DNA of 64,000 nt from an uncultured Candidatus Saccharibacteria bacterium (GTDB lineage Bacteria; Patescibacteriota; Minisyncoccia; Phycocordibacterales; UBA9973): positions 40,342-104,341 of the forward strand of contig CAYVDC010000003.1 in assembly GCA_964450735.1 (NCBI GenBank), read 5' to 3'. Under the pieces are notes generated by a model. It was not told where the DNA came from. It did not search any database and saw nothing but the letters and a program-made list of their open reading frames with translations. This document shows, piece after piece, positions 3,917-52,650 of the stretch. Numbering within the stretch: position 1 is the first letter of the stretch; every line of letters starts with the position of its first letter. Made by a program: the position numbers and the translations under genes.

Positions 3917-3959
3917 TACACTTAATGCGCGGGCAAGCCAATTTTGGTATACTCGCCAC

Positions 3960-7449: not shown

Positions 7450-7896
7450 ATGCAAGTACTACTATTACAGAACGTAAAGGGGATCGGCAAAGCAGGGGAG
7501 GTCAAAACGGTGAGCGACGGATATGCTCAAAATCTCTTGTTTCCCAAGAAATTGGCCGAGGTTGCGACTCCTGAAAAGATCGCCAAAATCAAAAATTCTG
7601 CGCAGGCTAAAATCGATGAAAAGAAACTTCATACTGATTTGACGATCAAAACATTGAGCGGACTTGATGGTTCGGAAATCGAACTTCACCGCAAGGTAAA
7701 CTCTGCCGGTGCGCTTTTTGGCAGCATTCATATTAGCGATGTTCGGGAAGCGATAAAATCTACTCACAAGATTTCTGTCGCAGAAGAGTACATCCATATT
7801 CCTGAGATGAAAACTACGGGAGAATTCAAAGCAAAGATCGGCGGCAAGACTTTAGGAAAAGAATTTTTACTGACTATTAAAGTGATCGGACAATAA
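7450..7896 (+). CDS. rplI: 50S ribosomal protein L9
   Basis: MQVLLLQNVKGIGKAGEVKTVSDGYAQNLLFPKKLA is a typical L9 N-terminus. Confidence 0.85.
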   Translation: MQVLLLQNVKGIGKAGEVKTVSDGYAQNLLFPKKLAEVATPEKIAKIKNSAQAKIDEKKLHTDLTIKTLSGLDGSEIELHRKVNSAGALFGSIHISDVREAIKSTHKISVAEEYIHIPEMKTTGEFKAKIGGKTLGKEFLLTIKVIGQ

Positions 7897-7903
7897 TCAT
7901 TCT

Positions 7904-9571
7904 ATGGAATCTGTAACGAAACAGTGCCAGAATTGCTCGATTGATTTCGTTATTGAAAGTGAGGATTTTTTCTTTTATGAAAAAATAAAAGTTCCACCAC
8001 CGACATTCTGTCCCGATTGTCGTCAGATGCGCCGTTATGCATGGCGAAATGAGCGAACTTTGTATCGTCGCGATTGTGACCTGTGTAAGAAGAAGATCGT
8101 TTCTATCTACCGAGAGGATTCCCCATATACTGTCTATTGTCCATCCTGTTGGTGGAGCGATGGATGGGATTCTGAATCATATGGACAGGACTATGATCCT
8201 TCAAAATCTTTTTTTGAACAGATGAACGAATTGAGGATGAAAGTCCCAAGGGTAGGATTGATGTCAAAGAACTGCGTCAATTCAGACTATGTGAATCATT
8301 CTTCAAATTCAAAGAACTGTTATATGAGCTTTGTTGCTTGGGAGTCTGAAGATTTGCTGTATTCGTCAAGCATCCTCAATGGAAAAAATTGCGTTGATTG
8401 TTACCGCACAGAGGAAGGCTCAAATGAGCGTTTATATGAGTGCATGACTTGCTATCGCTGCTACAAATGCCAGTATTGTTATCAGGTGCATGATTCATCT
8501 GATTGCTACTATTCATTTGATCTCAAAGGATGCACTGATTGTTTTCTTTCATATAACCTCCGCGGCAAGTCGTACTGCTTCATGAACGAGCAGTTAACTC
8601 GTGAAGAGTATTTTGAGCGCCTGAAACAATACGATCTTGGTTCAAGCAAGGTCCGAGAAGAATTATACAAGCTTTGGGTTGAGATTATTCAGAAAAAAGC
8701 TCTGCACCGGTCTTCGGTCATTGAACAGGCGGTAGATTGTACTGGTAACCTTATTTACAATTCAAAGAATGTCAAGAATGGATTTGAAGCGAATAATTGT
8801 GAAGACATGAAGTACACGATCGTTTCGACAGATTCAAAGGATATTATGGATTGCTATCACTATGGCGGCGGTAGTTCTTCGTTGATGTATGAGAGCCATG
8901 CGATCAGCGGAGGCAACTCAGTCATTGTCTGTCATCTGTCGTACGACAATTCGTTCATTTCTTATTGTGATACCTGCCACAACTCGCAGAATCTCTTCGG
9001 CTGTATTTCTGTCCGCAAAGGCTCATACATGATTTTAAATAAAAAATATTCTGAAGCGGAGTTCAAAGAATTGGTTCCGAAAATAATCGAGCGCATGAAA
9101 GAGGCAGGGGAGTACGGCGAATTTTTCCCAGCCGCCCATTCTCCGTTTGGATACAATGAAACTCAGGGCAACGTACATATGCCGCTTTCTAAGGAACAAG
9201 CGATTACATATGGATTGAAGTGGCAGGATTCATTGCCGGGAACATTTCATAAAGGAACAATGACAGCCGATGAATTGCCGGACACTATCAGTGAAGTTTC
9301 TGATTCGATTCTTGCTGAAATTCTTACTTCAGTCAAAACAGGCAGAAATTATAATATTGTTCCACAAGAGCTACAATTTTACCGACAGAACAATATCCCA
9401 ATTCCACAACTGCATCCAGATGAACGATACGAACGCAGGCTTGCACTCAAACCGAGCCGAAAGCTATTCAAGCGAACAACGGAAGATGAAGTTGAAGTTT
9501 TGACAGCCTATGCACCAGGCCGGCCGGAACGGATCGTGAGTGAGGAATATTATAAGAAAAATGTGCTATAA
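7904..9571 (+). CDS. cysteine-rich zinc-ribbon paralog A (type I; C-terminal zinc knuckle degenerate)
   Basis: N-terminal CQNC..F.I..EDFFFYEKIKVPPPTFCPDCRQMRR. It shares CILNKKYS, GEFFP...SPFGYNET and the ...YAPGRPERIV...KNVL tail with the six other copies in the window. The C-terminal CP.CR cysteines are replaced (HPDER). Confidence 0.8.
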   Translation: MESVTKQCQNCSIDFVIESEDFFFYEKIKVPPPTFCPDCRQMRRYAWRNERTLYRRDCDLCKKKIVSIYREDSPYTVYCPSCWWSDGWDSESYGQDYDPSKSFFEQMNELRMKVPRVGLMSKNCVNSDYVNHSSNSKNCYMSFVAWESEDLLYSSSILNGKNCVDCYRTEEGSNERLYECMTCYRCYKCQYCYQVHDSSDCYYSFDLKGCTDCFLSYNLRGKSYCFMNEQLTREEYFERLKQYDLGSSKVREELYKLWVEIIQKKALHRSSVIEQAVDCTGNLIYNSKNVKNGFEANNCEDMKYTIVSTDSKDIMDCYHYGGGSSSLMYESHAISGGNSVIVCHLSYDNSFISYCDTCHNSQNLFGCISVRKGSYMILNKKYSEAEFKELVPKIIERMKEAGEYGEFFPAAHSPFGYNETQGNVHMPLSKEQAITYGLKWQDSLPGTFHKGTMTADELPDTISEVSDSILAEILTSVKTGRNYNIVPQELQFYRQNNIPIPQLHPDERYERRLALKPSRKLFKRTTEDEVEVLTAYAPGRPERIVSEEYYKKNVL

Positions 9572-9578
9572 CTGATTT

Positions 9579-11297
9579 ATGGAACAGCGAAACTGCGAAA
9601 ATTGCAAAATAGATTTTCAGATTACAGCCGAAGATATTTCTTTTTATTCCCAGATGAAAGTTCCTTTTCCGACCTGGTGTCGCGAATGCCGATTTATTCG
9701 CCGTCTCATGTGGCGCAACGAGCGCGCGTATTACAAGCGCCCCTGCGGGCTCTGTCAGAAGAATATTATTTCGCTGTATGCACCAGAAAATACGTTTCCT
9801 GTGTATTGTCACGAATGCTACAACAGCGACAATTGGGACCGATTCGAGCATGGGATGGAATACGATTTCTCTCAGCCGTTTTTCGCGCAGTACAAAGTAC
9901 TACTTTCAAAGGTACCTCGCGTTGCGATGTATCAATATGAATCAACAAAGAGCGAGTATGCTAACTTCATTGGTCATACCAACAACGCATACCTTTCGGT
10001 TTCAGTGGTAGATCATTCAGAGAATATCTACTATTCAAAAAATATTACTCATTCCACAAATCTCTATGATTGTCTGGACTCTTTGACCTGTGAAAATTGC
10101 TACGAGAACATTGGCTGCACCAGCAACTACGGCTGCGCTTTTGCGGTGAACTCAAAAAACTGCGTCAGCTCGCAGTATGTTTTTGACTGTCAAAATTGCT
10201 CAGACTGCTTCATGTCTTCTAACTTGCGCAATAAGCAATATTGCGTGCGAAATCAGCAGCTGACCAAAGAGGAATATGTTGAATTTCTAAAGACTGTATC
10301 TTCCGACGAGTCTTTGAAAAAGGAATTTGATGAACTTACTCGAAACTCTATTCATAGATACGCGAACAACATTAATGCTGTACATTCAAAAGGCGATAAT
10401 TTGAAAAATACCAAAGACTGCAACTATTGCTTTAGTATTTCAGATGGCGAAAATCTTACCTATTGCCACCGAACGCCAGGACTAAAAGACAGCATGGATG
10501 TGAACAACATGATGTGGTCTGCCCGAGGCTATGAGTATTCGAGCGGGGGAGCACAGGGAAGCAGCGATCTGCGGTTTTGTACTAACATGTTTAGAGGTAA
10601 TTTGGATAATGAGTATTCTGACCATTGCGGAACCACATCACATGCCTTCGGCTGCATTTCGGTCAAAAGTGCCGAATACTGTATTTTAAATAAACAGTAT
10701 TCTAAAGAACAATATGAGGAATTGGTTCCACAAATTCGCGAACATATGGACCAATCTAAATATGTTGATTCGAAAGGCCGAGCGTTTGGATACGGCGAGT
10801 TTTTTCCGCCAGAATTTTCCATGTTTGCATATAACGAAACAGCAGCTCAAGAATACTTTCCTAAATCAGAAAGTGAAGTAAGTGACTTTGGGGTCAATTG
10901 GAAAGATCGTGAAAAGACTGACTATGGAACATTGCTCACAGTAGAAGAGTTGAAGAAACTTGATCGTACCGATGCTGCTTCGGTAACAAGCAAAGCCGTT
11001 CAATGTAATGGCGATTCAACCACACTTTGCAGTGGCGCCTATCGTATCTTGCCGGAAGAATTGGAATTTTATAATCGATTCAACATACCGCTTCCAGAAG
11101 CATGTCCTAACTGTAGATATTTCAAGCGCTTGCAACGATTTTGCAATCCGCTGACACTTTGGAAAAAGTCATGTGCCTGTGATATGGAAAACCACGACCA
11201 TTCCGGTACATGCCCCAACGAATTCGAAACGACCTACGCGCCAGACCGGACAGAAAAAGTATACTGTGAATCGTGTTATCAAAAAGAAGTTCTCTAA
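9579..11297 (+). CDS. cysteine-rich zinc-ribbon paralog B (type I)
   Basis: Shows the same N-terminal and C-terminal CxxC...CxxCR modules and ends ETTYAPDRTEKVYCESCYQKEVL. It sits 7 nt downstream of paralog A. Confidence 0.8.
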   Translation: MEQRNCENCKIDFQITAEDISFYSQMKVPFPTWCRECRFIRRLMWRNERAYYKRPCGLCQKNIISLYAPENTFPVYCHECYNSDNWDRFEHGMEYDFSQPFFAQYKVLLSKVPRVAMYQYESTKSEYANFIGHTNNAYLSVSVVDHSENIYYSKNITHSTNLYDCLDSLTCENCYENIGCTSNYGCAFAVNSKNCVSSQYVFDCQNCSDCFMSSNLRNKQYCVRNQQLTKEEYVEFLKTVSSDESLKKEFDELTRNSIHRYANNINAVHSKGDNLKNTKDCNYCFSISDGENLTYCHRTPGLKDSMDVNNMMWSARGYEYSSGGAQGSSDLRFCTNMFRGNLDNEYSDHCGTTSHAFGCISVKSAEYCILNKQYSKEQYEELVPQIREHMDQSKYVDSKGRAFGYGEFFPPEFSMFAYNETAAQEYFPKSESEVSDFGVNWKDREKTDYGTLLTVEELKKLDRTDAASVTSKAVQCNGDSTTLCSGAYRILPEELEFYNRFNIPLPEACPNCRYFKRLQRFCNPLTLWKKSCACDMENHDHSGTCPNEFETTYAPDRTEKVYCESCYQKEVL

Positions 11298-11852: not shown

Positions 11853-11887
11853 CGCACAATTGTGTCACAAAATGATATACTTCTAAC

Positions 11888-15947: not shown

Positions 15948-15967
15948 ATGTGAACGATCGTTCACAT
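15948..15967 (-). promoter_or_regulatory. LexA (SOS) box inside the promoter spacer of the lexA operon
   Basis: Perfect 20-bp palindrome ATGTGAACGATCGTTCACAT containing GAAC-N4-GTTC. On the - strand it sits between TTGCAT (-35) and TATACT (-10), with a 17-nt spacer. Confidence 0.65.
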
Positions 15968-17463: not shown

Positions 17464-18773
17464 GATGCATATTGTAACATAGCTTTTGTTGGAGCAGGAA
17501 AATAAAGCATGGGGTCAAGGTACGCATTTGTAGCGGCGATTGGCATGGTGTATGTTTTGCCGGTGCATGCCTGGCTTTTGAGCGTGGTTATCTTCACGCC
17601 AGTAGAAACAAAGGCTGATACATGCAAATGCGGGCCCGTTGCGTAACCAGTAGCGCCACTATACGCAATAGTAGATGCCGGCGTTACTCGTGAACCTGTT
17701 TGTGCGGTAACCAGTGAAAGATGTCCATATACAGTCGATAGTCCATTGTCGTGTTTTACTAGCACCCAGTTTCCGTATGATGCTCCTGGACAGGTAAGAT
17801 CTGTATTACCGCTACCTACAATTGTTCCAGCCATTACCGGGTGTACTGGAGTTCCTGTTGGCATGCCAAAGTCGATGCCATTATGGGTTCCTGAAGCGTA
17901 TAAACGGCCCGAGGCGCTTGTTTTTCCAAATAGTTGAGTAATGCGAACCAATTCAACTGGCCAGCCAAAAACAGAGCTTCCAGCCTTTGGGATGGCGCTT
18001 GGATCAAGTACGAATTTGAGCTGAGATTCGTAGTTTCGTACGTCCGCTTCGAATGCTTGCTTTTTGGCTTGGCGATCTTTGAGAAGGGCTGCGTAGTTGG
18101 CTTCTTTGTTCTTGGTTTCTTTGAGAAGGCTGGCTTTGTCTCGTGCGTTAGCATCAACTACTTTTTTTTGATTGTTCAGTCCTGCTGAAAGGTCGCGGAG
18201 GGTCTTCTCATTTTCTTCGACGGCTTTTTTGTGGTCTTCGAGAATGATCTTGTCGCTGTGCAATTTTTCTGCAGCATGAGCGAATGTATCGTTGAGCGTT
18301 TGGATTGCATCCATCTCTCGCCAGACTTCACCAAGTGATGTCCCTGGTTGTGCTAGGTACGCAACGAGGTCGGTATTATCTGACTCTTGGGTCTTGCGCA
18401 AAAGTGCGGCGATGGCGTTTTTTTGAAGACTGATTCCTTGGGAAGTCACTGTGATTGAGTCAGAAAGTTTTTTCTTTTCTAGCAGTGCGGCATCGATCTT
18501 TTTCTGAGTGATTTTGATATCGGTGGCCAGTTTTTTTGCATTAAGATCGAGTTCTGAAATTGCTTTGGAAAGTGAGTCTTTTTCTTGGCCGACCGAAGTA
18601 AGCTGTTTTTGGTAGCTGGCGATCTCGGCTTCAAGTGCAGCGATTTGGCTCTGCGTGGTATTGATCTTAGATTGAAGTTCGTCCGCAGTTTGCGCATAGG
18701 CATTAGCAAAAAATACTCCTGATATAATCAGTGTTGCAACGAGAAGTATTTTTGCAAGAAATCTGTGTGACAC
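17460..18773 (-). CDS. M23 (LytM) peptidase with long coiled-coil (EnvC-like murein hydrolase activator)
   Basis: N-terminal signal/TM, extended coiled coil, and C-terminal GTHNGIDFG...HLHVS M23 motifs. Confidence 0.75.
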   Translation of the reverse strand: MSHRFLAKILLVATLIISGVFFANAYAQTADELQSKINTTQSQIAALEAEIASYQKQLTSVGQEKDSLSKAISELDLNAKKLATDIKITQKKIDAALLEKKKLSDSITVTSQGISLQKNAIAALLRKTQESDNTDLVAYLAQPGTSLGEVWREMDAIQTLNDTFAHAAEKLHSDKIILEDHKKAVEENEKTLRDLSAGLNNQKKVVDANARDKASLLKETKNKEANYAALLKDRQAKKQAFEADVRNYESQLKFVLDPSAIPKAGSSVFGWPVELVRITQLFGKTSASGRLYASGTHNGIDFGMPTGTPVHPVMAGTIVGSGNTDLTCPGASYGNWVLVKHDNGLSTVYGHLSLVTAQTGSRVTPASTIAYSGATGYATGPHLHVSAFVSTGVKITTLKSQACTGKTYTMPIAATNAYLDPMLYFPAPTKAMLQYAS

Positions 18774-39440: not shown

Positions 39441-41126
39441 CTAGGCTACTTCGTTCTGATAGCAAGATTCGCAGTAGATGATCTGCTTTGATTCGGGAGA
39501 ATATGAAGTCTCGAATTCATTTGGACATCCCTCGTTCATGCAGTGACGGTGCCAGAGCTTGCGCGGTGTACGTCGGTTCAGTCGATCACGGAATCGGCAT
39601 GGGAAGCATTGCTCTGGAAGCGGCATGTTTAGTTTTCGGTGGAGCATAAGTTCGTCCTGGGTAATTCTAAAAGCAGTAGCGCATGCAGTATGCAGCTTTT
39701 TGCTTTCTTCAGAATCCTGGGAGCTGCAGCTGATCGTTTGCTGTAGAATTGTGTCGTCAGTTTCAGCGATTGATTGCGGAATGTTTGAGTGTTCCAAGGT
39801 GATGGTGTAATTGCGATTGTCGCGGTCATGCCACTTCCAGCCTTTGGCGAGAACCTCTTCTTTTGTCATTGGGAAATAAAATTGAGCAACCGTTTCGTTG
39901 TATGCAAACGGTGAAATAGATGTCGGCATGAATTCTCCCCATTCGCCTGTCTGCTTCATGTGCTCAACAATTTTCTTGGTAAGCGCCTCATAGTCTTCTT
40001 TTGTATATTGTTTGTTGAGAATGCAGTATTTGTTTTTGTTTAATGCTACACAGCCAAAAAGATAATCACAGCTGAAGCAATTTTCTACATAGCGTGAATC
40101 TGAAATATTCCAGGTACGTGAACAGCCAATACTTCGTGCTGAATAGCCAATGCCTTCCATTTCATAATCAAGCTCGTTGAAGGCCATCTCGGTGACATCC
40201 ATGCAGTTTTTGACATGCCACGCGTCTTGGCAGTAGCTTGAATCTTCCGCATCGAACATGCAAAAGTTCGCTTTGCAGTTCTTTACGTCATCAATGTAGG
40301 AGCCAGTCGACTGCACGATCTTTTGGCCTTGATAATACTTTTTTGGCAATCCAAGCGAAAGTTCACTTTGTATTCTTTGTGCTTCTGCGATGTTTGCTCG
40401 TGAGAACGTGAATTCTGAAAGTCTCTTTTTGTATTCTTCTTTGCTGAGCTGTTCATTGAACCAGCAATACGACTTGCTGCGGAGATTCACACATCCGAAA
40501 CAGCTGATGCATCCCTTGCAGTCTTTGAGAAAATAGCTCTCCGTGCAATCAGAACAGTCGTCGAGATAGGCTGATCGAGAACAATTAGTACAGTTGATGC
40601 ATTCATAGAGGAGTTCTGATGTGAGCAAACGATGGCTGTCGATACATTCTTTGCTGCTGAAATAGAGCGAGCCGTACATGGAGTCTTCGCTCTGATCGGA
40701 ACCAAATACCATGTAGCAATTCTTTAGATCCTGGGATTGGTTGGTGTAGTCGCTGTTTACGCATCGTGGATGAGCAATGCTGAGCTTTGGTGTTCGTTCG
40801 CGAAGTTCTTTGAATTGATCGAAGAACGGCCGATTGAAATCGAAATCTGCACCGTATTGCAAACGATCCCAATCATCACTCCACCAACAGCTGGTGCAGT
40901 AAACGGGGCCTTTATAGTCAGGGTTGTAAATTGAAACCATCGGCGTTTCGCACTTGGTGCAATTTCGGCGATAGAGCTCCCACTCATTGCGATCTGAGAT
41001 GCGTCGCTGGTAGCGACAGTCAGGACAAAGAGTTGGTGCAGGCACACCGATCTTTTCATAGAAACTTATGTCATCAGCAGTCGGGCTGAAGTTGGTTCTG
41101 CATTGGGCGCAGGTAATTGCATTCAT
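39441..41126 (-). CDS. cysteine-rich zinc-ribbon paralog C (type I); the start is the internal Met MNAITCAQCRTNF
   Basis: Carries the same N- and C-terminal zinc-ribbon modules, CILNKQY, GEFMP...SPFAYNET, and ends ETSYSPESKQIIYCESCYQNEVA. Confidence 0.8.
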   Translation of the reverse strand: MNAITCAQCRTNFSPTADDISFYEKIGVPAPTLCPDCRYQRRISDRNEWELYRRNCTKCETPMVSIYNPDYKGPVYCTSCWWSDDWDRLQYGADFDFNRPFFDQFKELRERTPKLSIAHPRCVNSDYTNQSQDLKNCYMVFGSDQSEDSMYGSLYFSSKECIDSHRLLTSELLYECINCTNCSRSAYLDDCSDCTESYFLKDCKGCISCFGCVNLRSKSYCWFNEQLSKEEYKKRLSEFTFSRANIAEAQRIQSELSLGLPKKYYQGQKIVQSTGSYIDDVKNCKANFCMFDAEDSSYCQDAWHVKNCMDVTEMAFNELDYEMEGIGYSARSIGCSRTWNISDSRYVENCFSCDYLFGCVALNKNKYCILNKQYTKEDYEALTKKIVEHMKQTGEWGEFMPTSISPFAYNETVAQFYFPMTKEEVLAKGWKWHDRDNRNYTITLEHSNIPQSIAETDDTILQQTISCSSQDSEESKKLHTACATAFRITQDELMLHRKLNMPLPEQCFPCRFRDRLNRRTPRKLWHRHCMNEGCPNEFETSYSPESKQIIYCESCYQNEVA

Positions 41127-41182
41127 GGAGTAAGTATAGCGCGCTTCGCGGGTCTGTAAACTATCTAAGTCATATATACTAA

Positions 41183-41205
41183 AAAGTGTCATTTTTTGAC
41201 ACTTT
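41183..41205. promoter_or_regulatory. palindromic operator-like site AAAGTGTCA-ttttt-TGACACTTT in a divergent promoter region
   Basis: 9-bp perfect arms centred in the 95-nt gap between paralog C (-) and the wHTH-like gene (+). Confidence 0.4.
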
Positions 41206-41221
41206 ATGATATGGTTCAAAA

Positions 41222-42052
41222 ATGCTGTTTTCGAGAAATACGGGAGCGACAATTGAAGAATTGATTATCGAATCGCTTGGCGCACATGCTGTGACAGGCG
41301 CTACTCTTTTGGAGAAAATCAGGAAAACGCTTCCGAAAACGCCGAAAGAGACTTTTTACCGGATCCTCCGTTCCCTGCTTGAGCAGGAAGTTGTGACCAA
41401 GTATGGCATGCTCTATGGAGTGAATCGCCATTGGCTCAAACGCCTTTACCGTTTTAGTAAACCAAAACTCGATCTGACACAGCCAACAAACACTATGAGT
41501 GTACTATCTTTCGAGGAAGGAGATTCCATCACGTACACATTTAAAACACCCAACCTAATGGGAATTTACTGGGCACATCTGTATGATGCGGTGTTTGACC
41601 TTCACTATCCCCAAATACCGATTCTTATATTCCACCCACATGAATGGCTGATTCACACTCGCACTGACTCAGAAACTTTTTTCCTCAAACGTTTTTCCGA
41701 AGATCAGAAACGAGGTCTGTTTTCTATTGGCGGCTCAACTGAACTAGATACAGAATTTAAAAAGAAATGGGCAAACAAGTATCTCGAGGTTGCGACGGGT
41801 GCGTCATATGGATTAAAAAATACTGAGTACTTGAATGTTTTAGGCGACTTTATTTTCAAAGTTAAAGTGAGTGCGCGATTCGCAAAAGATATTGATGGGT
41901 TCTTCAGAAAATATAAAACAATCAATGACGACAACCGAGAAGAATTGATGTCCATCTGCAATCGTCCCGACAAAGTTAAAATGATCTTTACGAGATCGAA
42001 GAAAGAAGCGGATAAATGGCGAGCGAAGTGGAAGAAAGACTTCTTTATATAA
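41222..42052 (+). CDS. hypothetical protein with an N-terminal winged-helix-like region (possible transcription regulator)
   Basis: TGATLLEKIRKTLPKTPKETFYRILRSLLEQEVVTKYG resembles a wHTH. It is divergent from paralog C and convergent with paralog D, overlapping it by 8 nt. Confidence 0.4.
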   Translation: MLFSRNTGATIEELIIESLGAHAVTGATLLEKIRKTLPKTPKETFYRILRSLLEQEVVTKYGMLYGVNRHWLKRLYRFSKPKLDLTQPTNTMSVLSFEEGDSITYTFKTPNLMGIYWAHLYDAVFDLHYPQIPILIFHPHEWLIHTRTDSETFFLKRFSEDQKRGLFSIGGSTELDTEFKKKWANKYLEVATGASYGLKNTEYLNVLGDFIFKVKVSARFAKDIDGFFRKYKTINDDNREELMSICNRPDKVKMIFTRSKKEADKWRAKWKKDFFI

Positions 42053-43796
42053 CCTCTTTTTGGTAGCAGGATTCGCAATACACTTTTTCTGGTCGTTCTG
42101 TCGAATACGTTGTTTCAAATTCAACCGGACACTTTCCTGCATGGTCATGACTCGCCTCTTCGCACATACATGAACGCTGGTAGAGTTCCGGGCTATTTCG
42201 CCAATGAACTCGCTCCACATGTCGGCAGTTGAAGCACAATCGCGGCAGTGGCACATTCATTTGTCGGTAAAACTGCACTTCCTCTGGTGTAAGTCGAAAT
42301 GCTGTCATGCAGTTGGCTCCGCAGTCCTTGTTGTGGCTATTTTCTTCATGATGCATGCATTCAATCACTTCCTGAGTGATTTCGTCAGGCACATCGGCAA
42401 TGCTGTTAGGGAGATTTTTGGATGTTTTAGTAACCGTGTAATTTCTGGTGTCAGGAGTTCGCCAGTTAAATCCGAGTTCAAGTACTTCTTCTTTTGGAAT
42501 TGGAAAATACTCATATCCCTGTGATTCGTTGTAGCCATAGGCGCTAAACATCGGTGGGAAAAATTCTCCGTATTTGTAGACGCGCCCTTTTTCATCGGTG
42601 TACGGCATGTCGATCATGTGCTGAATGATTTTTGGTACCAATGCCTCGTATGCTTCCTTGGTGTATTGTTTATTCAAAATGCAGTACTGTTTGCTATGAA
42701 GTGCGATGCAGCCGAAGGTGTTGGATACCGTTCTGCAGTTGATGATGTATCTCGAATCCGCAGCTGTTAAGGAATCAACTGCAAAAAATGTTCTGTTCAT
42801 TCCGGAACCTGAACCGCTGATTTCATAGGCGAGCTCAATCCCCACTCCTGATGAAGTGAGATCCATTGAGTCCTTGATTGGATCATAAATAATACTCTGC
42901 GAGTGTGCGCAGTTTTGAGCGCCGTTGGAGAAGAAGCAGTTTCGAAGTTCAGATGCGTTGTAGAGATAGTCTCCAGTGCAGCCAAAGTCTTTCAGTCCAT
43001 GTCGAAAACGAACTGGCTGGCTTGTCCAAAAAGCTTCCGCACCTCCTCGAGCTTTTTGCAATCCTTTCCAAGTGTCTAACTTGAACTCTTGGATTTTCTT
43101 TGAGTATTCTTCTTTGGTATATGGCTGATTAAAAATATGATAGCTTTTGTTGCGCAAGTTGGTGCAGCCAAAACAGTCAGTACAACCAACGCAATCTTGG
43201 CTGAACCACACATCAGCACAGGCATTTAAATTGCGAGAAAAAGCTACTTTGTTGCAGTTGGTGCAGTTGATGGCCCAGTAGGTAAATTCACAGAGTTTGC
43301 AGTTGATTGTATCGAAACAGTTTTTGCTTTTCTGCAGGCTTACTCCGTAAGCGCTGTCTTCGGCATATCCAGCATCGAAGCAGAGATAGCAGTTTTTCAG
43401 ATCAATTCCGAGGCTGTATTCGCTGTTGACCTGATTTTGGTTAAGCGTATTGCTTGCTGGAACAACATCAAACAATTCCTTGAACTGCAGAAAAAACGGT
43501 TTTGAAAAGTCATAGTCCTTGCCATAGTCGAGCGGATCCCAGGCATCGCTTCCCCAATATTCCCGATCATACGCCGGCATCAGTGCGCTCGGAGGAACCA
43601 TGGAGAATATCTTCTTGCCAGTCGCCGCGCAGGTACGGCTATACAAATACCTAAAATTACGAAACGCCATGCGACGCATCGCACGGCATCTCCAGCACCA
43701 CGTCGGAGGAGGAACATTTATTTTCTGGTAGAACGAAGAATCATCGGGGGTGATGGTGAAGAAGGTTTTGCAGTTTTGGCAGGAAATGTTTTGCAT
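42045..43796 (-). CDS. cysteine-rich zinc-ribbon paralog D (type II; second N-terminal zinc knuckle lost)
   Basis: N-terminal CQNCKTFF...FYQKINVPPPTWCWRCRAMRR, then AATGKKIFS in place of C..C.K, then YDREYWGSDAWDP. The C-terminal ribbon is intact and the protein ends VYCESCYQKEVI. Confidence 0.8.
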   Translation of the reverse strand: MQNISCQNCKTFFTITPDDSSFYQKINVPPPTWCWRCRAMRRMAFRNFRYLYSRTCAATGKKIFSMVPPSALMPAYDREYWGSDAWDPLDYGKDYDFSKPFFLQFKELFDVVPASNTLNQNQVNSEYSLGIDLKNCYLCFDAGYAEDSAYGVSLQKSKNCFDTINCKLCEFTYWAINCTNCNKVAFSRNLNACADVWFSQDCVGCTDCFGCTNLRNKSYHIFNQPYTKEEYSKKIQEFKLDTWKGLQKARGGAEAFWTSQPVRFRHGLKDFGCTGDYLYNASELRNCFFSNGAQNCAHSQSIIYDPIKDSMDLTSSGVGIELAYEISGSGSGMNRTFFAVDSLTAADSRYIINCRTVSNTFGCIALHSKQYCILNKQYTKEAYEALVPKIIQHMIDMPYTDEKGRVYKYGEFFPPMFSAYGYNESQGYEYFPIPKEEVLELGFNWRTPDTRNYTVTKTSKNLPNSIADVPDEITQEVIECMHHEENSHNKDCGANCMTAFRLTPEEVQFYRQMNVPLPRLCFNCRHVERVHWRNSPELYQRSCMCEEASHDHAGKCPVEFETTYSTERPEKVYCESCYQKEVI

Positions 43797-43799
43797 AGA

Positions 43800-45236
43800 T
43801 TATTTTAGTAAGAAATCTATTTCACCCTTAAAAAGATTACTAAAATCTTGAGGCTTCTCTATTTTATCTGCGATTTTATCTGCGATTTCTCCCTTTAAAT
43901 CACCAATGGATTCACCAGACTTTTTTCTAGTTTGAAATTCAGTAAAAAGTAAGTTATTGAAGTCCTCATAATAATCTTCTAGTGCCTGTTTTTTTAGTTC
44001 GTGGAATCTGCTTTCTCCTAATGTAGTAAGTTTTGTATATTTTTGATTACTTTTTTCACTTGTAGCTACTTGGTCAATAATTATATGGTATGAGTCTCGA
44101 TACAAAGGATGACAAGTAAATAAAGTATTATAAATAGATAAATTTTCAATCCTCTCTTTAAATTTTTCTGTCCTAGTTACTCCCGAGCATGATATAAAAT
44201 TAAAGTCTTGTAAAAATCCCTTTTCCTTGCATTTATTTAAAATTCTACAAATACTACTTTCTTCAACTAAGCAGAGATTGTCTGTAAGCCCGATATCGCT
44301 TGGATCTGCCCCTAGCAGCATTGCAACTTCCTTCATTTTAAAACCACCGTTAAAACCATTACTATCGATATTTTTCCCATTTTCAATTCTGAAAACTTTT
44401 TGGGTTGGAAAATTTTTAGAAGAGTTTATTATAAACGGACTATGTGTCGCAATAAAAAACATTACTTTGTCATTCAGACTATTTTCAGTTATAAATGAAT
44501 CAATTAAGCCAGGTAATATTTTTTGAGCTTCAGGATGTAAGTTATTTTCAGGTTCTTCAATTAGCACAATTACCAGCTCCGGCTTTACTTCTTGAGCAGA
44601 CTTTAAGATTTGTTCAAAAATTCCGTTTAATCGCTCTAGTCGTTTAATTCCCTGAGCTAAATACTTAGGTTTTATTTTATTTCCATTTTGAAAAAAAGAT
44701 CTTGAAGGTGTTTCTTCGAAAGGGTCAACAGGGGTTTCAATTTTTACTTCAATTGGTTCAAGATTTAAATATATGGCTGATTGTTTAATTCTATTAAACA
44801 ATCTTGCCTCAACTCCACTTCCGGTGTTACGACTTGCCCCAATTCCTCTTCCAAAATTACGGGTTGCCTCTAGAGAATCAAAATTTACACTTTCAGCTTT
44901 TTTAATACTACCTAACGCTGTAGGAAAATCTTCAAAATCAGTATCAGCAACAAAATCTAATAACATGGTTCCAGTTATATTTATATTATTACCGTCAGAA
45001 ATAACTTTTTTAATCGTATTATGCTTTTCAAATACAATTTCTGACTCTTTTCCCCACATGAATGTGTTTAGTGCAGGTATTTTATTAATTCTTATTGATA
45101 ATAAAGCTAGTGCGTTTAGAACGCTAGTTTTTCCACTACCATTTTTCCCAACTAAATAGTTAACAAACTCAAGTGATTTGAATTCATTAACTCCTTGTAG
45201 GTTTTTTATGTTTTTAATTTTAAGATTGATAGCCAT
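43800..45236 (-). CDS. OLD/AAA15-type ABC ATPase, possibly with a degenerate C-terminal Toprim-like region
   Basis: Walker A LVGKNGSGKTSVLNAL, Walker B/D-loop VIVLIEEPENNLHP and H-loop ATHSP. The C-terminal LCLVEESS...ISCSGVT...HIIIDQ weakly resembles Toprim. It lies 3 nt from the flanking paralogs on each side. Confidence 0.7.
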   Translation of the reverse strand: MAINLKIKNIKNLQGVNEFKSLEFVNYLVGKNGSGKTSVLNALALLSIRINKIPALNTFMWGKESEIVFEKHNTIKKVISDGNNINITGTMLLDFVADTDFEDFPTALGSIKKAESVNFDSLEATRNFGRGIGASRNTGSGVEARLFNRIKQSAIYLNLEPIEVKIETPVDPFEETPSRSFFQNGNKIKPKYLAQGIKRLERLNGIFEQILKSAQEVKPELVIVLIEEPENNLHPEAQKILPGLIDSFITENSLNDKVMFFIATHSPFIINSSKNFPTQKVFRIENGKNIDSNGFNGGFKMKEVAMLLGADPSDIGLTDNLCLVEESSICRILNKCKEKGFLQDFNFISCSGVTRTEKFKERIENLSIYNTLFTCHPLYRDSYHIIIDQVATSEKSNQKYTKLTTLGESRFHELKKQALEDYYEDFNNLLFTEFQTRKKSGESIGDLKGEIADKIADKIEKPQDFSNLFKGEIDFLLK

Positions 45237-45239
45237 ATT

Positions 45240-46934
45240 TTATATTACTTCTCTCTGATAACACTCCTCACAATAAACCACCTCCTCCCTCCCCGCCTCA
45301 AACGATGACTTTACCTCTTTTCCGCACTTATCACATGTCCGATCATACAACCGAAATCCATTCAGCATTCTAATTCTCCCCATATGCCGGCAGTCAGGAC
45401 ATTCTCTTGGAACTGGAATTCCAAATCGCTTCAAGAGCTGCAGTTCGCCAACCACAATGCGATAAAATTTTCCACAATTGCATTTCAAGATTTCATCGGT
45501 AAAAGCATCTGGAATATCGTTGATGCTATCCGGAATATCCGCCAACTCAATTGTCTGCGTATAGTTCGGCACCGTCGGCTCGATCCATTTGAAACCACTT
45601 TCAAGAATTTCTTCTTTGTCCATCGGGAAATATTGTTCAGCAAATGATTCGTTGTACGCAAACGGTGAAATGTCATACGGCATAAAGTCGCCGTATTTCC
45701 AGACGCGACCTTTGGAGTCCACATACGGATTGGCGTTCATATCCGCAATAATTTTTTCACGAAGGGCAAAATAGTCTTCTTTGGTGTATTGCTTGTTGAG
45801 GATGCAGTATTCTTTCTTGCGCAAATTCACGCAGCCGAAACAGTTTGTTGAACCCAAGGTAAAGATTGAATACTCTACATCGCGGATATTACCCCAGCTC
45901 ATAGCGCTGTATTTGACCTCATACGCCCCTTCGCCCGTATTGGTGACATCTATGCAGCGTTCGACGTTATTACCCCAGTCAGTGATGTCGTACGAGTCTT
46001 TGACGGTTGGCAGCGTAATCATCTGCACATAGGCGCTGTCTTCCGCTCCAGCCTGGTAGCATTGTTTGGCGTTTTTGGCATGAAAGACGTATTCGCCGGT
46101 TGAGTTATGGTTCATGCGAGCATGCACATATCGAATCGGAAACTTCTTCCAGAATTTGTAAATCTCTTCGCGGATTTTTACATGACTTGAATGTTTATCA
46201 AGTTCCATCTCAGCGATCTTTTTGTCGTATTCTTCTTTGGAATATTGTTCGTTGAAAATACAATGGCTCTTGTTTCGCAAATTCACGCAACCAAAACAGT
46301 CAGTACAGCCAATGCATTCCTTGGAGTACCACATGCCGACAGAGCTTGAGCAGTTATTTGAAAAGTAACATCGAGAACTGCCAGAGCCGCCGATCGTTCC
46401 GTAGTTGAGCTCGACATGCATTCCCATGAGCAGATCGGCAGAATCTTTGACATAGGCAAGCGTTGAGCCGTAGTAGGTATTCTCGCAAAAGTCTGCGGTA
46501 AATATCAGATGCGAGTCTTTGATGCTGCCAGCGTGATTGATGTAGTCGCTATTTACCACAGTCGCGTAGTCGGTCACTTTTTGCATCCAAATAGTTTTGG
46601 ATTGCAGTTCGTAGAGCTGATCAAAGAAATTTCTATTCGGATCATAGTCGAGATATGTATCGCTCGGATCCCAATTGTCGCTCCACCAACAGGCGCTGCA
46701 GTAGACTCGCAATCCCCGTTCTGGTGAGAATATTGAAATTATTTTTTTGTTGCACAGTTCGCATTCGCGGCGGTAAAAGGTGCGTTCGTTGCGGAACATC
46801 AGGCGACGTTGAAAACGGCATTCAACGCAAAAGGTCGGTGCCGGTACATTCAAGGAATGGTAAAAATTGAAATCGTCGGAGTCGATAGTGAAGGAGGTTT
46901 TGCAGTTTTGGCAGGTCCGGGTTTCCATATACAT
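45240..46934 (-). CDS. cysteine-rich zinc-ribbon paralog E (type I)
   Basis: N-terminus METRTCQNCKTSFTIDSDDFNFYHSLNVPAPTFCVECRFQRR, and ends with a C-terminal ribbon ...VYCEECYQREVI. Confidence 0.8.
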   Translation of the reverse strand: MYMETRTCQNCKTSFTIDSDDFNFYHSLNVPAPTFCVECRFQRRLMFRNERTFYRRECELCNKKIISIFSPERGLRVYCSACWWSDNWDPSDTYLDYDPNRNFFDQLYELQSKTIWMQKVTDYATVVNSDYINHAGSIKDSHLIFTADFCENTYYGSTLAYVKDSADLLMGMHVELNYGTIGGSGSSRCYFSNNCSSSVGMWYSKECIGCTDCFGCVNLRNKSHCIFNEQYSKEEYDKKIAEMELDKHSSHVKIREEIYKFWKKFPIRYVHARMNHNSTGEYVFHAKNAKQCYQAGAEDSAYVQMITLPTVKDSYDITDWGNNVERCIDVTNTGEGAYEVKYSAMSWGNIRDVEYSIFTLGSTNCFGCVNLRKKEYCILNKQYTKEDYFALREKIIADMNANPYVDSKGRVWKYGDFMPYDISPFAYNESFAEQYFPMDKEEILESGFKWIEPTVPNYTQTIELADIPDSINDIPDAFTDEILKCNCGKFYRIVVGELQLLKRFGIPVPRECPDCRHMGRIRMLNGFRLYDRTCDKCGKEVKSSFEAGREEVVYCEECYQREVI

Positions 46935-46937
46935 ACT

Positions 46938-48677
46938 CTACAGGACTTCCTTCTGATAGCAAGTTTCGCAATACACCTTTTCTGGCCGCTCAGGCGCATA
47001 AGCAGTTTCAAATTCCACCGGACATTTCTGTTTGTGGTCGTGATTTGTCTCAGTACACATACATGAACGGTGCCATAGTTTCCATGGCAGGATTCGCTCA
47101 AGGCGTTTAAAATATCTGCAGTTTGGGCAAAGCCGAGGCAGGGCTAAGTTAAATTTCTGCAACAGTTGTAATTCTTCCTTGGTAACTCGGAAAGCCCCTG
47201 AACAAATATGATTACACTCTTCTGAGTGCTCACACGGCAATGATTCTTGAGTTATAGATTCGGGAATATCTTTGACGTGTTTCGGAAGCGAATCAAACCC
47301 AACTGTACCCTGGTGCCCGCGCTTCGGCTGATCTATCCAGGTATATCCTTGTTTGAGTGCCTCTTCTTTGCTTAGTGGAAAAAGCTCAAAGAGGTTTGTC
47401 TGATTGTATGGAAATCGGGATAGTTCGATTGGAAAATATTCACCATAAAAGTAAGTCCTGCCTTTAGTGTCAATATATGGCACTTTTTTCATCTGCTCAA
47501 TTATCTTGTTGCGGAGTTCATAGTACTCAGCTTCAGAATATTGCTTATTTAGAATGCAGAATTTTTTATGCTTAAGGCCAGTACAGCCGAACAAGTTCTT
47601 AACATGATTGGTGCCGTCGCAATAGGTAATTTCCCGTACGTCGCCGACATCAAAGCAAAAAAGTGCATGGTCGACTCCTCTTCCAGCAACAGAAAATTCG
47701 TATGACAACTCTGCTCTTCCTGACATTGAAAAGTCACAAGAATCTACTACCGGTGATACGGTGATCTGTGCGTAGCGAATATTTTCTGAGTCGTTGATAG
47801 CAAAGGAATGGAATACATTTTTTGAGTTAAAAATAGTGTCCCCTGTAACATTTTCGGATTGCAGGATTGTCGCATATCGATGAATTGCATTGGTATACAT
47901 ATCAGCATATTCTGTTTTCAGTTTTGAGAGCGAATCAAAGCCGCCATCAAGCTCTTCTGTAATCTTTTGCTTGTATTCTTCCTGTGTAAGTTGCTGATTG
48001 CGAAATACATATGATTTATTTCGTAAATTCGACGACATGAAGCAATTGGTACAATTCACGCAATCAAAAAGGAAATGCGATTCCACGCACGCTTGTGATC
48101 GGGTTAGAAAAGAGGAGCCATAGTTTTCGTGCGACGCAACTAATTCATAGCAATTTTCATTGCCGCTAAAATTCGCCGAGTCCATGCACATCCGGTTGCC
48201 GTTCTCGCTTCCCCATGAATAGTACACGTGTTCACTTTTGGTTACTCCATAGGATAGATAAATATTGCTTGATTTGTATACATAATTTGAGAAAACAATA
48301 TTCTCTCCGTTGTTGTTAGTATGCGCCAAATGCAATTGCGGTACGCGCTTCATGAGATCGTGAAATTGTTCAAAAAACGGCTTAGAGAAATCATAGTCCG
48401 CGCTGTATTCACTGGCGTCCCAATCATCTTTGAAATAGCAATCGGTACAGTACACCGTAAATGGTGAATCTGGGGCATACGATGAAGCCATATCTGTGCC
48501 GCATTTTGAACAGGAACGCTTAAAGAGCGAACGCTGGTTTCTGGAAGCCGTGCGGCGTTCCATTCTGCAGTCGGGGCAAAATGTAGGAGGTGGAACGTTT
48601 ACTTTTGCGTAAAAAGCAAAATCTTCAGGAAAAATAGTGAAGTCGGTTTTGCAGTTTTGGCAGGTTCGGGGTTCCAT
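46938..48677 (-). CDS. cysteine-rich zinc-ribbon paralog F (type I); start at the internal MEPRTCQNCKTDF
   Basis: Same architecture, ending ETAYAPERPEKVYCETCYQKEVL. It sits 5 nt after the paralog G stop. Confidence 0.8.
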   Translation of the reverse strand: MEPRTCQNCKTDFTIFPEDFAFYAKVNVPPPTFCPDCRMERRTASRNQRSLFKRSCSKCGTDMASSYAPDSPFTVYCTDCYFKDDWDASEYSADYDFSKPFFEQFHDLMKRVPQLHLAHTNNNGENIVFSNYVYKSSNIYLSYGVTKSEHVYYSWGSENGNRMCMDSANFSGNENCYELVASHENYGSSFLTRSQACVESHFLFDCVNCTNCFMSSNLRNKSYVFRNQQLTQEEYKQKITEELDGGFDSLSKLKTEYADMYTNAIHRYATILQSENVTGDTIFNSKNVFHSFAINDSENIRYAQITVSPVVDSCDFSMSGRAELSYEFSVAGRGVDHALFCFDVGDVREITYCDGTNHVKNLFGCTGLKHKKFCILNKQYSEAEYYELRNKIIEQMKKVPYIDTKGRTYFYGEYFPIELSRFPYNQTNLFELFPLSKEEALKQGYTWIDQPKRGHQGTVGFDSLPKHVKDIPESITQESLPCEHSEECNHICSGAFRVTKEELQLLQKFNLALPRLCPNCRYFKRLERILPWKLWHRSCMCTETNHDHKQKCPVEFETAYAPERPEKVYCETCYQKEVL

Positions 48678-48682
48678 ATCAA

Positions 48683-50401
48683 TTAGAGGATTTCTTTTTG
48701 GTAACACTGTTCACAATATACTTTTTCAGGACGGTTTGGCGAGTAGGTAGTTTCAAAGGTATTTGAGCAGGCTCCAGAATGGCTGTGGCCGGAAATATCA
48801 CACGAGCAGGTTCGAGTATGCAGCTTCGGCACATTTCGAAGCGCCAATCGCTCATAATGACGACAGTTAGGGCAAAGGTTTGGCAGCGGAATATTCATTC
48901 GTTTGCAGAAATCAAATTCAGTCTCAATCATGCGGAATGCGCCCGTACATTCATGTGTGCAGGATTCTTTGTGAGCACATTCAATAACCTGATCAAGAAT
49001 AGTTTTGTCAGCATCTTGGATATTGTCGGCAAGATTTTCTGCTGGAATTGTAATCGTGTATTGCTGTTTCGCAATCGGATACCAAACTAATCCTTTCTCA
49101 GTCGCCTCAGTTTCAGTTAGCGGAAAGAATTCATGCGCCTGAGTCGCATAATATGGAAATGGGGACATACTTGATGGGAAAAACTCGCCATATTCCCCTG
49201 TTGTTTCCATATGTTCGATAATTTTTGGAACTAATGCCTCATATTCTTCCTTTGAATATTGCTTGTTTAAAATGCAATATTTTTTATTGCGGAGTGACAC
49301 GCAGCCAAAAAGATATGAAGCATTGCTGCAGTGAACTGAATACTCCATAAATGAAGCATTTGGATATCCCTCTGCGCAGAATTTCACATTCGAAACGCCA
49401 GTACCCATAACCATGGATTCGTAGACGAGCTCTGCGTTGTCTCCGTAGTTGCTGTAATCGTAACAGTCTTTGACCGGGCCAGTCAGAATATTTTGGATGT
49501 ATTTGCTGTCTTCGGTTCCACGAACACGATAGCAATCTTTTGCATTCTTGGATTCGTAAATATAGTCGCCGGAAACATTTACATTCTGGCCGCCATGCAT
49601 GAACTTGTGCGGAAATGTTTTCCAATGCTTGTACGCTTCTTCTCGTGCAGTATCAAACGATTTCCGTGAACCAAGATTCATTTCAGCTATTTTCGCAAAG
49701 TATTCTTCTTTTGAATACGGCTGATTAAAAATATGATACGACTTGCTTCTCAAACCAATTGAGCCGAAGCAATCATTGCATCCGACGCAGTCTTTAGAAA
49801 GTGTCATTTCGTGACACTTTTCACAATCTACTGAAAAGAAGGTCCTGTAGCATTCGATCGTATTTATATTGCCATAGCTGAGCTCGCAGCGATTGGTCAT
49901 GTGGCTGTCGAAACACTGTTTCGAGCCTTGATCCCAGATAACATAGGCAGAATCCTCGGTAAATGACGCTCCACGAACAAGGTAGCAATTCTTGATATCG
50001 TTTGCATTAGTACAATACTGAGAATTGACCGCGTTCATAATCGGATGCGCTGGCAGTGGAACAGAATGAAATAATTCCTGCCACTGCTCAAAAAACGGTC
50101 GGTTGAAATCAAAATCACGGCCATGATCCATTGGATCCCAGGCATCAGACATCCAATATTCTTTGTCGTAAATTTTTACCGGGCTTTCTTCAGGATACAA
50201 AGAAAAAATCTTCTCGCCAGTTCGCTCATCGGTTTTCTTGAAAAGATGCCAGTCGTTACGCCATGAGAGACGACGTTTAAGACGGCATTCAGGACAAAGC
50301 GTTGGCGGAGGAACTTGGATTTTGGAATAGAAATCAAAGTCCTCTGCGAGAATATCAAAAGTAGTATTGCAGTTCGCACATGCGACTGAAGCGGTTTCCA
50401 T
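48683..50401 (-). CDS. cysteine-rich zinc-ribbon paralog G (type II)
   Basis: N-terminal CANCNTTF...FYSKIQVPPPTLCPECRLKRR, then ERTGEKIFS with no second knuckle, then YDKEYWMSDAWDP. The C-terminal ribbon is intact. Confidence 0.8.
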   Translation of the reverse strand: METASVACANCNTTFDILAEDFDFYSKIQVPPPTLCPECRLKRRLSWRNDWHLFKKTDERTGEKIFSLYPEESPVKIYDKEYWMSDAWDPMDHGRDFDFNRPFFEQWQELFHSVPLPAHPIMNAVNSQYCTNANDIKNCYLVRGASFTEDSAYVIWDQGSKQCFDSHMTNRCELSYGNINTIECYRTFFSVDCEKCHEMTLSKDCVGCNDCFGSIGLRSKSYHIFNQPYSKEEYFAKIAEMNLGSRKSFDTAREEAYKHWKTFPHKFMHGGQNVNVSGDYIYESKNAKDCYRVRGTEDSKYIQNILTGPVKDCYDYSNYGDNAELVYESMVMGTGVSNVKFCAEGYPNASFMEYSVHCSNASYLFGCVSLRNKKYCILNKQYSKEEYEALVPKIIEHMETTGEYGEFFPSSMSPFPYYATQAHEFFPLTETEATEKGLVWYPIAKQQYTITIPAENLADNIQDADKTILDQVIECAHKESCTHECTGAFRMIETEFDFCKRMNIPLPNLCPNCRHYERLALRNVPKLHTRTCSCDISGHSHSGACSNTFETTYSPNRPEKVYCEQCYQKEIL

Positions 50402-50481
50402 GCCTCAAATATACCACGAAATGCCCCTTTGTCTGTAAGATTTCTTTTTGACTACCGTCTCTATCTATGTTCCCGTTCTCT

Positions 50482-51124: not shown

Positions 51125-51340
51125 TTAGTGAGCGCTCTCAACCATCAATTCATACGGAACTGAAAGTATAGAAACGACAGCCCAGAGTGGAAAGATGCCG
51201 ATGCGTATGACCCAGTAGAGCGGGTCATGTCGATCCATTTTTTGGTAGAGGTCGCTTACTTTGAGGAGTAGGAGGTTCAGTGGAATATATACTACGCCAA
51301 TGACGATGGCCAAAAGCATTTTTATGAGTGTGATGATCAT
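51125..51340 (-). CDS. small hypothetical membrane protein
   Basis: Two TM helices. It overlaps the upstream gene by 4 nt. Confidence 0.3.
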   Translation of the reverse strand: MIITLIKMLLAIVIGVVYIPLNLLLLKVSDLYQKMDRHDPLYWVIRIGIFPLWAVVSILSVPYELMVESAH

Positions 51341-51612
51341 TGCTTTACTCCAGTTACTTTTTTAAATGCCTTTGCTCCGCGCGAAACTACATGTGAGCCA
51401 CGAGTGACAGTGGCAATACCAAGCCCGAGATCAGTTGCGATCGCACGCTGCGCTTCGCCAGCTATAAGCCGAGTAAGTATCTCAAATCTGCGTACTAACT
51501 CTACATACTCCTTTTCAGTGAGAACTTCAGTCAAAAAAGCTTTGAGAACTTTCTCATCTTTCCCCGCTTTTATCAGTGCTGCTATGAGTTTTTTTTCGTA
51601 GGACTTATTCAT
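51337..51612 (-). CDS. YerC/YecD-like TrpR-family DNA-binding protein
   Basis: LTEKEYVELVRRFEILTRLIAGEAQRAIATDLGLGIATVTRGS is a TrpR-like HTH. It is encoded 4 nt downstream of trpS. Confidence 0.6.
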   Translation of the reverse strand: MNKSYEKKLIAALIKAGKDEKVLKAFLTEVLTEKEYVELVRRFEILTRLIAGEAQRAIATDLGLGIATVTRGSHVVSRGAKAFKKVTGVKQ

Positions 51613-52623: not shown

Positions 52624-52650
52624 AGGGCTATTGTAGCAAAATTTGGCAAG

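Follow-up and report, generated by a model that had tools for sequence, protein, structure and literature searches.

A TrmB-like winged-helix regulator of Patescibacteria and its conserved candidate operator: predicted autoregulation and the probable replacement of a partner gene

Regulators of the TrmB type act as dimers on palindromic DNA sites, and their activity depends on small ligands. In TrmB (PDB 3qph, 2f5t) and in TrmBL2 (PDB 5bpd), a winged helix is followed by a connecting helix and by a phospholipase-D-like (PLD-like) fold devoid of the HKD motif, an order of domains that is also predicted for the 276-aa regulator described here, whose length is close to that of TrmBL2. TrmB proper carries in addition a C-terminal sugar-binding barrel, which is lacking both in TrmBL2 and in this regulator, the latter ending at residue 276 after its PLD-like domain. 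Whereas TrmB and TrmBL2 are archaeal, and in some cases bacterial, the family to which this regulator belongs appears from sequence searches to be large and unannotated, and has been found so far only in Patescibacteria.

Other described systems share one aspect or another with this locus. By analogy, the nearest functional counterpart in the literature would be PchR (YvmB) of B. subtilis, a MarR-type repressor located beside the cyclodipeptide synthase operon yvmC-cypX, that binds a 14-bp palindrome and represses both yvmC-cypX and its own gene (PMC4992311). The likeness lies in the association of a winged-helix regulator with a neighbouring cyclodipeptide synthase gene and a short palindrome, here predicted from sequence. 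In contrast, PchR belongs to the unrelated MarR family and has no PLD-like domain, and the synthase is present here only in relatives of the locus. PLD and winged-helix domains are also fused in endonucleases such as Aba4572I and CbaI (PMC11037411). Finally, homologs of the regulator are labelled as Fur/Zur in some JGI records, but this likeness is weak and limited to the winged helix, over about 55 residues (7-61), with E values of 0.02-1 for Zur, and of 0.02-0.04 for Fur and AdcR against the regulator profile; the C-terminal fold of the regulator is predicted to be PLD-like, and the metal-site motifs of Fur are absent.

To our knowledge, gene regulation in Patescibacteria (candidate phyla radiation), very few of which can be cultured, is almost entirely unexplored. 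What the present locus offers is a concrete pair of regulator and candidate operator for this group, open to direct in vitro testing, together with a 19-bp site defined to single-base resolution and a promoter model in which an extended -10 box would feed a leaderless mRNA. The best explanation of these features is an ordinary autoregulated transcription factor that would have lost its ancestral partner gene.

The regulator and its family

In the window, i.e. the whole 64-kb stretch of DNA that was analysed, the regulator gene stands between two genes of a cysteine-rich paralog family, and its product can be divided into two predicted domains:

39441-41126, minus strand: paralog C, 561 aa, cysteine-rich and containing treble-clef zinc fingers (match to Pfam zf_Tbcl at E 3e-5)
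41222-42052, plus strand: regulator gene, 276 aa, with a winged helix and a PLD-like-fold domain (from homologs, AlphaFold2 and Foldseek)
41252-41422, plus strand: predicted winged-helix DNA-binding domain, residues 11-67
41345-41383, plus strand: predicted recognition helix, residues 42-54, PKETFYRILRSLL
41519-42031, plus strand: C-terminal PLD-like-fold domain, approximately residues 100-270, putative dimerisation/effector domain
42045-43796, minus strand: paralog D

The regulator ORF, as read from the window sequence, is separated from the divergent paralog C by an intergenic gap of 95 nt (41127-41221), and its last 8 nt (42045-42052) overlap the stop of paralog D. The length of the gap, this overlap and the presence of a perfect palindrome with 9-bp arms, as announced in the original prediction, are all found in the sequence. 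The ATG of paralog C at 41126, on the minus strand, is of the consensus type and gives a protein start matching the MxxxxCxNC pattern shared by its six paralogs in the window. Paralog D closes a string of closely spaced minus-strand genes (in order G, F, E, an ATPase and D) that opens with paralog G and terminates 8 nt inside the regulator gene.

Close homologs of the 276-aa protein number 85, all of them about 280 aa long and all from Patescibacteria/Paceibacterota assemblies. Among 1.84 billion representative proteins searched with a profile, 1472 cluster representatives were recovered at E<=1e-3, including 178 at E<=1e-30, and nearly all of these family members are 265-290 aa long and matched over their full length. 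Searches of Pfam, NCBIfam, PADLOC and PHROGs gave no above-threshold family for the protein, nor did the PDB yield a match by sequence or by profile; the window protein has zero matches in Pfam at E<=1, and none of 54 diverse family members matches Pfam at E<=0.01. As far as sequence goes, the connection to the TrmB family is confined to sub-threshold matches to PF01978 (TrmB), recorded in 11 of 44 family members (best E 0.0043), the C-terminal families being unmatched, while other sub-threshold winged-helix matches involve Zur (E 0.02), Fur, PadR and HVO_A0261_N. A comparison by hhalign of family alignment A1 with the PF01978-positive protein of locus L007 gives a probability of 3.6%, over 38 winged-helix columns only.

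The structural model, built by AlphaFold2 from a 44-sequence alignment (mean pLDDT 87), comprises three helices and a beta-hairpin wing at residues 11-67, a helix at 69-84, a disordered linker at 84-92 and, from about residue 100 to 270, an alpha/beta domain with a fold of the PLD type. The best full-length Foldseek match is TrmB of P. furiosus (3qph_A, E 2.2e-6, 263 columns), and on this model the architecture would be TrmB-like, and nearest in size to TrmBL2. The N-terminus, first described as resembling a winged helix-turn-helix, is thus predicted to be a winged helix at residues 11-67, and the C-terminal domain, first regarded as uncharacterised, can be reassigned to a PLD-like fold as found in TrmB and TrmBL2. 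Residues W117, H119, H140, W142, E151, D176, K181, N205, V206, G208 and D209 are conserved down to 26% identity, and family motifs include WxH, (H/N)PHEW and NVxGD; these conserved C-terminal residues are read as a putative ligand pocket or dimer interface.

The palindrome and the promoter of the regulator gene

Three elements are distinguished in the gap between the two divergent genes:

41183-41205, no strand assigned: candidate operator AAAGTGTCA-TTTTT-TGACACTTT (from sequence and conservation)
41207-41215, plus strand: extended -10 element TGaTATGGT, followed by 6 nt (41216-41221) and the ATG (read from the sequence)
41133-41160, minus strand: promoter-like site of paralog C, made of TTTACA, 16 nt and TATACT, with 6 nt separating it from the ATG at 41126 (consensus scan)

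The arms of the palindrome, AAAGTGTCA (41183-41191) and TGACACTTT (41197-41205), are perfect over 9 bp on either side of the spacer TTTTT (41192-41196), the whole containing a 19-bp core, AGTGTCA-N5-TGACACT (41185-41203, centre 41194), with an imperfect extension to 16-nt arms of 81% complementarity (41176-41212). By itself, this palindrome is not significant, and a 9-bp inverted repeat is not rare: a scan of the window for perfect inverted repeats with arms of at least 9 bp and spacers of up to 10 nt yielded 49 matches, against a mean of 2.7 in composition-preserving shuffles, and the 49 amount to some 22 separate repeats, most of which look like terminators. The case for a function must therefore rest on other evidence, and the palindrome is counted as real because 22 genomes have conserved it ahead of their orthologous genes, for which chance is no explanation.

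These 22 distinct genomes encode proteins 40-98% identical to the window protein, and every one of them harbors a palindrome with a core of the AGTGTCA-N5-TGACACT type immediately upstream of the regulator gene. All 14 core positions are invariant in 20 genomes, the spacer measures 5 nt throughout, with A or T at 108 of its 110 bases, and the distance from the core end to the ATG is 17-19 nt in 20 of the 22, while the flanks of the palindrome have diverged. One relative (L024) displays a symmetric change in both arms (AGTGTTA...TAACACT), and another (L025) has this type of change in one arm only. The original prediction had made its case dependent on conservation of the palindrome in related genomes, which is what the comparison shows, and gene and site move together across unrelated genomic contexts.

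More distant homologs, at 26-32% identity (L026-L031), lack AGTGTCA. Another palindrome is present in four of these six loci, spanning 19 bp overall as in the window and with identical outer AGT...ACT: AGTAAA-N7-TTTACT in L026, L030 and L031, and AGTCAAAA-N3-TTTTGACT in L027. The predicted recognition helix of the distant homologs reads TKQAxYxxL(R/K), versus SKETFYRxLR in the close set, K42 and Y46 being retained, and E43, T44 and R47 altered. The operator type and the recognition helix thus vary in concert, and the gene is not separated from its site; both observations make the adjacent regulator, rather than another factor, the likely reader of the palindrome. The second operator type of this sister clade would in turn predict which residues of the recognition helix read which bases.

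The extended -10 box abuts the right arm of the palindrome, and TGnTAnnnT-6 nt-ATG is encountered again at most orthologous loci, with TGaTATAAT in L004, for instance, or TGaTATACT in L018, L019 and L021. No other arrangement is as frequent among the first genes of the window: of 52 genes, 10 have a TAnnnT hexamer whose end lies exactly 6 nt ahead of the start codon, compared with about two at other offsets, and just one has a Shine-Dalgarno-like motif. As the extended -10 box lies only 6 nt before the ATG, we infer that the regulator mRNA is leaderless and starts at about 41222, so that the palindrome would occupy positions -39 to -17, centred near -28. In many relatives the palindrome is preceded by a canonical TTGACA-17-TATTTT promoter and then falls at about +8 to +30, which would again be a repressor position. 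A -35 role for the TTGACA within the right arm was rejected: the -10 box is just 8 nt away, and the alternative pairing proposed by the scan, TTGACA-16-AAAAAT, would start transcription inside the conserved ORF.

The palindrome is thus found over the promoter of the regulator gene and conserved with that gene, as in an autoregulated repressor. We consider it probable that the protein is a dimeric and presumably ligand-responsive autorepressor, combining a winged helix with a PLD-like domain. The dimer would bind the 19-bp AGTGTCA-N5-TGACACT site through the recognition helix (residues 42-54), and the bound site would span about -39 to -17 of the leaderless mRNA driven by TGaTATGGT, thereby blocking RNA polymerase and repressing the transcription of its own gene. 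A putative polar pocket (H119, H140, E151, D176, K181, N205, D209) would probably bind an effector that alters the affinity for DNA. Dimer binding, the transcription start and effector binding are deduced from sequence and model, and it is the position of the site alone that suggests repression rather than activation.

Partner genes and competing readings

Which gene shares the divergent promoter region depends on the clade considered. Paralog C adjoins the regulator only in the window clade (L004, L010, L011 and L012, with 66-98% regulator identity), and its -10 box (AGTATA on the plus strand) is retained in L001/L010, L004, L011 and L012. In 13 genomes (L008/L022, L013, L014, L015, L018-L021, L023-L025, L153 and L155), the divergent neighbour is a cyclodipeptide synthase gene located 100-190 nt away, and five synthase neighbours that were checked score 90-110 bits against Pfam PF16715, for a cut-off of 27. 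The synthases are mutually as low as 23-30% identical, which indicates that their pairing with the regulator is old. Furthermore, a neighbour-joining tree places the window clade within synthase-linked clades, with the synthase-linked L023-L025 at a basal position, which argues for an ancestral pairing that the window clade has lost; with a custom HMM, no cyclodipeptide synthase was detected at E<=1 either within the 64 kb of the window or at the loci of its clade. The pairing with the synthase therefore appears to be the ancestral state: the regulator and its site would have stood back to back with a cyclodipeptide synthase, and this neighbour would have been replaced by paralog C in the window lineage. 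The recurrence of this association hints that these reduced genomes hold a natural-product or signalling gene under regulation, and a literature search on these synthases, or on promoter and regulator work in Patescibacteria, retrieved nothing specific.

The original prediction was of a candidate locus-specific regulator that controls itself and paralog C. Its first half fits a site placed over the promoter of the regulator gene. The second half is not supported as it was put, as the regulator and its operator form a module occurring in many contexts, with a synthase as partner in 13 genomes, and as the palindrome lies outside the promoter of paralog C: it is located 22 bp upstream of the -35 box, centred at about -68, and does not overlap this promoter. 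The winged helix and autoregulation are well supported, whereas paralog C as a target is not, adjacency alone pointing, weakly, to this possible control.

A broader version of this idea, which we regard as unlikely, holds that the protein is a locus-specific regulator of the cysteine-rich paralogs as a group, that the palindrome serves paralog C, and that a second operator, in paralog G, gates the string G-F-E-ATPase-D. It draws on the following features:

48683-50401, minus strand: paralog G
49798-49820, no strand assigned: second perfect copy of the palindrome, AAAGTGTCA-TTTCG-TGACACTTT, inside paralog G, 581 nt from its start

About 0.02 matches to the palindrome would be expected by chance in the window, with up to three mismatches allowed, and this perfect copy lies in the first gene of the minus-strand string. 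In the same direction, the divergent arrangement with paralog C is retained in all four of the relatives named above for the window clade, the distant homolog L026 is likewise surrounded by such paralogs, and they also occur within 4-8 kb in L007 and L016. On the other hand, such paralogs are missing within 10 kb of the regulator in most members of its family, and the paralog family is so abundant (>7351 proteins) that chance adjacency is not negligible; the synthase partners and the position of the palindrome relative to the paralog C boxes weigh on the same side. The site in paralog G is also partly dictated by its coding function: it encodes E-K-C-H-E-M-T-L, in which the family-conserved C-[HQ]-E-M fixes TGTCA-N5-TGA and thereby 8 of the 18 arm positions. 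K and T occur in this lineage only, orthologs at 64-69% identity having S or N in place of K and I in place of T, and in these orthologs the palindrome would not form; the nearest paralog G homolog in the database, 69% identical, has another peptide at the site. The copy in paralog G may be a true secondary operator, or a coincidence aided by coding constraints, and in the former case the link to the paralogs would be revived.

More doubtful still is the reading in which the whole family would respond to cyclic dipeptides, the PLD-like pocket binding the product of the ancestrally adjacent cyclodipeptide synthase, and in which the circuit would have been rewired in the window lineage onto the zinc-finger paralogs, with the palindrome of paralog G as a second operator. 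If true, it would reveal a small-molecule feedback or signalling circuit in Patescibacteria.

It is improbable that the protein acts as a chromatin-like binder of low specificity, as TrmBL2 does, with the palindrome as just one of its high-affinity sites. The family is found widely, at roughly one copy per genome, in small genomes with few regulators, in line with such a role, but the strict conservation of a 19-bp site at a fixed position, and its covariation with the recognition helix, argue for sequence-specific recognition.

There is very little chance that the protein is a nuclease of the winged-helix/PLD family, restriction-type or site-specific, rather than a regulator. PLD-winged-helix fusion endonucleases do exist (PMC11037411), and the C-terminal domain does contain conserved His, Lys, Asn and Asp residues. 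However, the HxK(x)4D(x)6GSxN catalytic motif was not found in family alignments A1, A3 and A4, the closest string, HPHEWLIH, having its first His replaced by N or D in distant members. Compared with Aba4572I, CbaI and Nuc/NucT, the regulator has its domains in the reverse order and lacks the catalytic HxK/HxD/HxE...K motif, and unlike these nucleases it is encoded in a non-defence context, amid housekeeping genes and with no methyltransferase partner; PADLOC and PHROG matches are lacking as well. Besides, a conserved recognition site beside the enzyme's own gene, here a candidate operator over its promoter, would be self-destructive.

Just as improbable is an RNA stem-loop (a 5'-leader hairpin or a terminator) in place of a protein-binding DNA site: the window palindrome does fold as a 9-bp hairpin of -10.9 kcal/mol (z = -4.2), it would be transcribed in several relatives from the upstream TTGACA-17-TATTTT, and many of the listed matches of a metagenome scan resemble A-tract/stem/T-tract terminators, but the sole recognisable promoter element of the window clade is downstream of the palindrome, which would leave it untranscribed, the divergent flanking genes need no terminator, the spacer length is strictly fixed, the palindromes of the distant clade fold weakly in the stretches tested (-5.3 and -1.5 kcal/mol), and the palindrome type shifts along with the recognition helix.

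This metagenome scan, performed with AAAGTGTCA-N5-TGACACTTT, recovered at least 120 loci, and among the matches listed only L150 carries the regulator. The scan is uninformative on a regulon, because the AAA/TTT flanks give the pattern a terminator-like character. An assignment of the regulator itself as an AbiEi antitoxin was rejected (hhalign probability 0.1%), and no AbiEii homolog was found in the window or in any locus of the regulator family. Among the matches listed, at least 29 loci have the 23-bp pattern some 50 nt ahead of an unrelated gene pair, an AbiEi-like antitoxin gene and then an AbiEii toxin gene, so that the palindrome sequence is not diagnostic of the regulator family.

Cysteine-rich paralogs and turnover of their array

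Seven paralogs of a cysteine-rich protein, each 555-589 aa long and carrying treble-clef zinc fingers at both ends, are found in the window, those designated C to G being arranged as an array that is interrupted, between D and E, by the insertion of an ATPase gene:

7904-9571, + strand, paralog A
9579-11297, + strand, paralog B
within 39441-50401, - strand, paralogs C to G
43800-45236, - strand, ABC-type ATPase of 478 aa (Pfam AAA_15 and AAA_21)

The family is large (at E<=1e-50 it has over 7351 members), its named members are all 'hypothetical' proteins and all belong to Patescibacteria, and the central part of the paralogs is covered by no Pfam family. The ATPase is similar to AriA, PtuA and GajA, which are defence ATPases (E about 1e-15 in PADLOC), and at the matching position of a comparison locus, L001, a 158-aa gene is found instead.

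Identity between the window and another comparison locus, L011, is uneven along the region, reaching 97% for paralog D and 94% for paralog E, 84% for paralog C, and 78% for the regulator, the predicted winged-helix protein encoded divergently from C. Nothing in L011 closely matches paralog F or G (at most 45% identity). This pattern suggests recombination or turnover inside the paralog array.

Palindromes in the window and beside AbiEi/AbiEii genes

The operator palindrome, a candidate regulator site upstream of the regulator gene, has a second perfect copy in the window, and an inverted-repeat scan of the window returned a further palindrome:

49798-49820, the second copy, inside the paralog G coding sequence
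15948-15967, perfect 20-bp palindrome ATGTGAACGATCGTTCACAT

The copy in paralog G, for which a conserved C-[HQ]-E-M peptide accounts in part, may be a second operator, and ATGTGAACGATCGTTCACAT may be another candidate operator.

A palindrome identical to that upstream of the regulator gene, AAAGTGTCA-N5-TGACACTTT, is located about 50 nt 5' of an AbiEi-like antitoxin gene in at least 29 metagenome loci, and is presumably the antitoxin's own operator. This antitoxin (about 200 aa) is unrelated to the regulator and has no Pfam match; its gene is followed by that of an AbiEii nucleotidyltransferase toxin.

Metagenome loci with the palindrome and AbiEi-like/AbiEii genes
L043, L049, L052, L057, L067, L070, L071, L092, L095, L103, L112
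L114, L117, L120, L130, L134, L135, L139-L142, L145, others

Regulator relatives, promoter layout and neighbouring genes

Cyclodipeptide synthase genes (PF16715) occur in Patescibacteria genomes, consistently head to head with the regulator family, a pairing for which literature searches found no paper in Patescibacteria:

L013, L014, L015, L018-L025, L153 and L155, synthase gene on the strand opposite the regulator gene and about 100-190 nt upstream of it

Some genomes may possess two regulator-family paralogs, since L028 has, 1.6 kb upstream of its family member, a second, divergent 265-aa ORF resembling the family (7527-8324, + strand).

A leaderless layout is common in the window, many first genes having an extended -10 box (TGnTAnnnT) exactly 6 nt 5' of the start codon, and Shine-Dalgarno-like motifs are present in only one of 52 window genes.

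Examples of the extended -10 box plus 6 nt
3945-3959, 11873-11887, 18258-18272, 41207-41221, 50402-50416, 52624-52638

Elsewhere in the window, a Trp-repressor-like gene adjoins, directly downstream, that of tryptophanyl-tRNA synthetase:

51337-51612, - strand, Trp-repressor-like gene (PF01371-type), 91 aa
51616-52623, - strand, tryptophanyl-tRNA synthetase gene

The annotation of L004 shows this same pair, and L008 too has a Trp_repressor gene.
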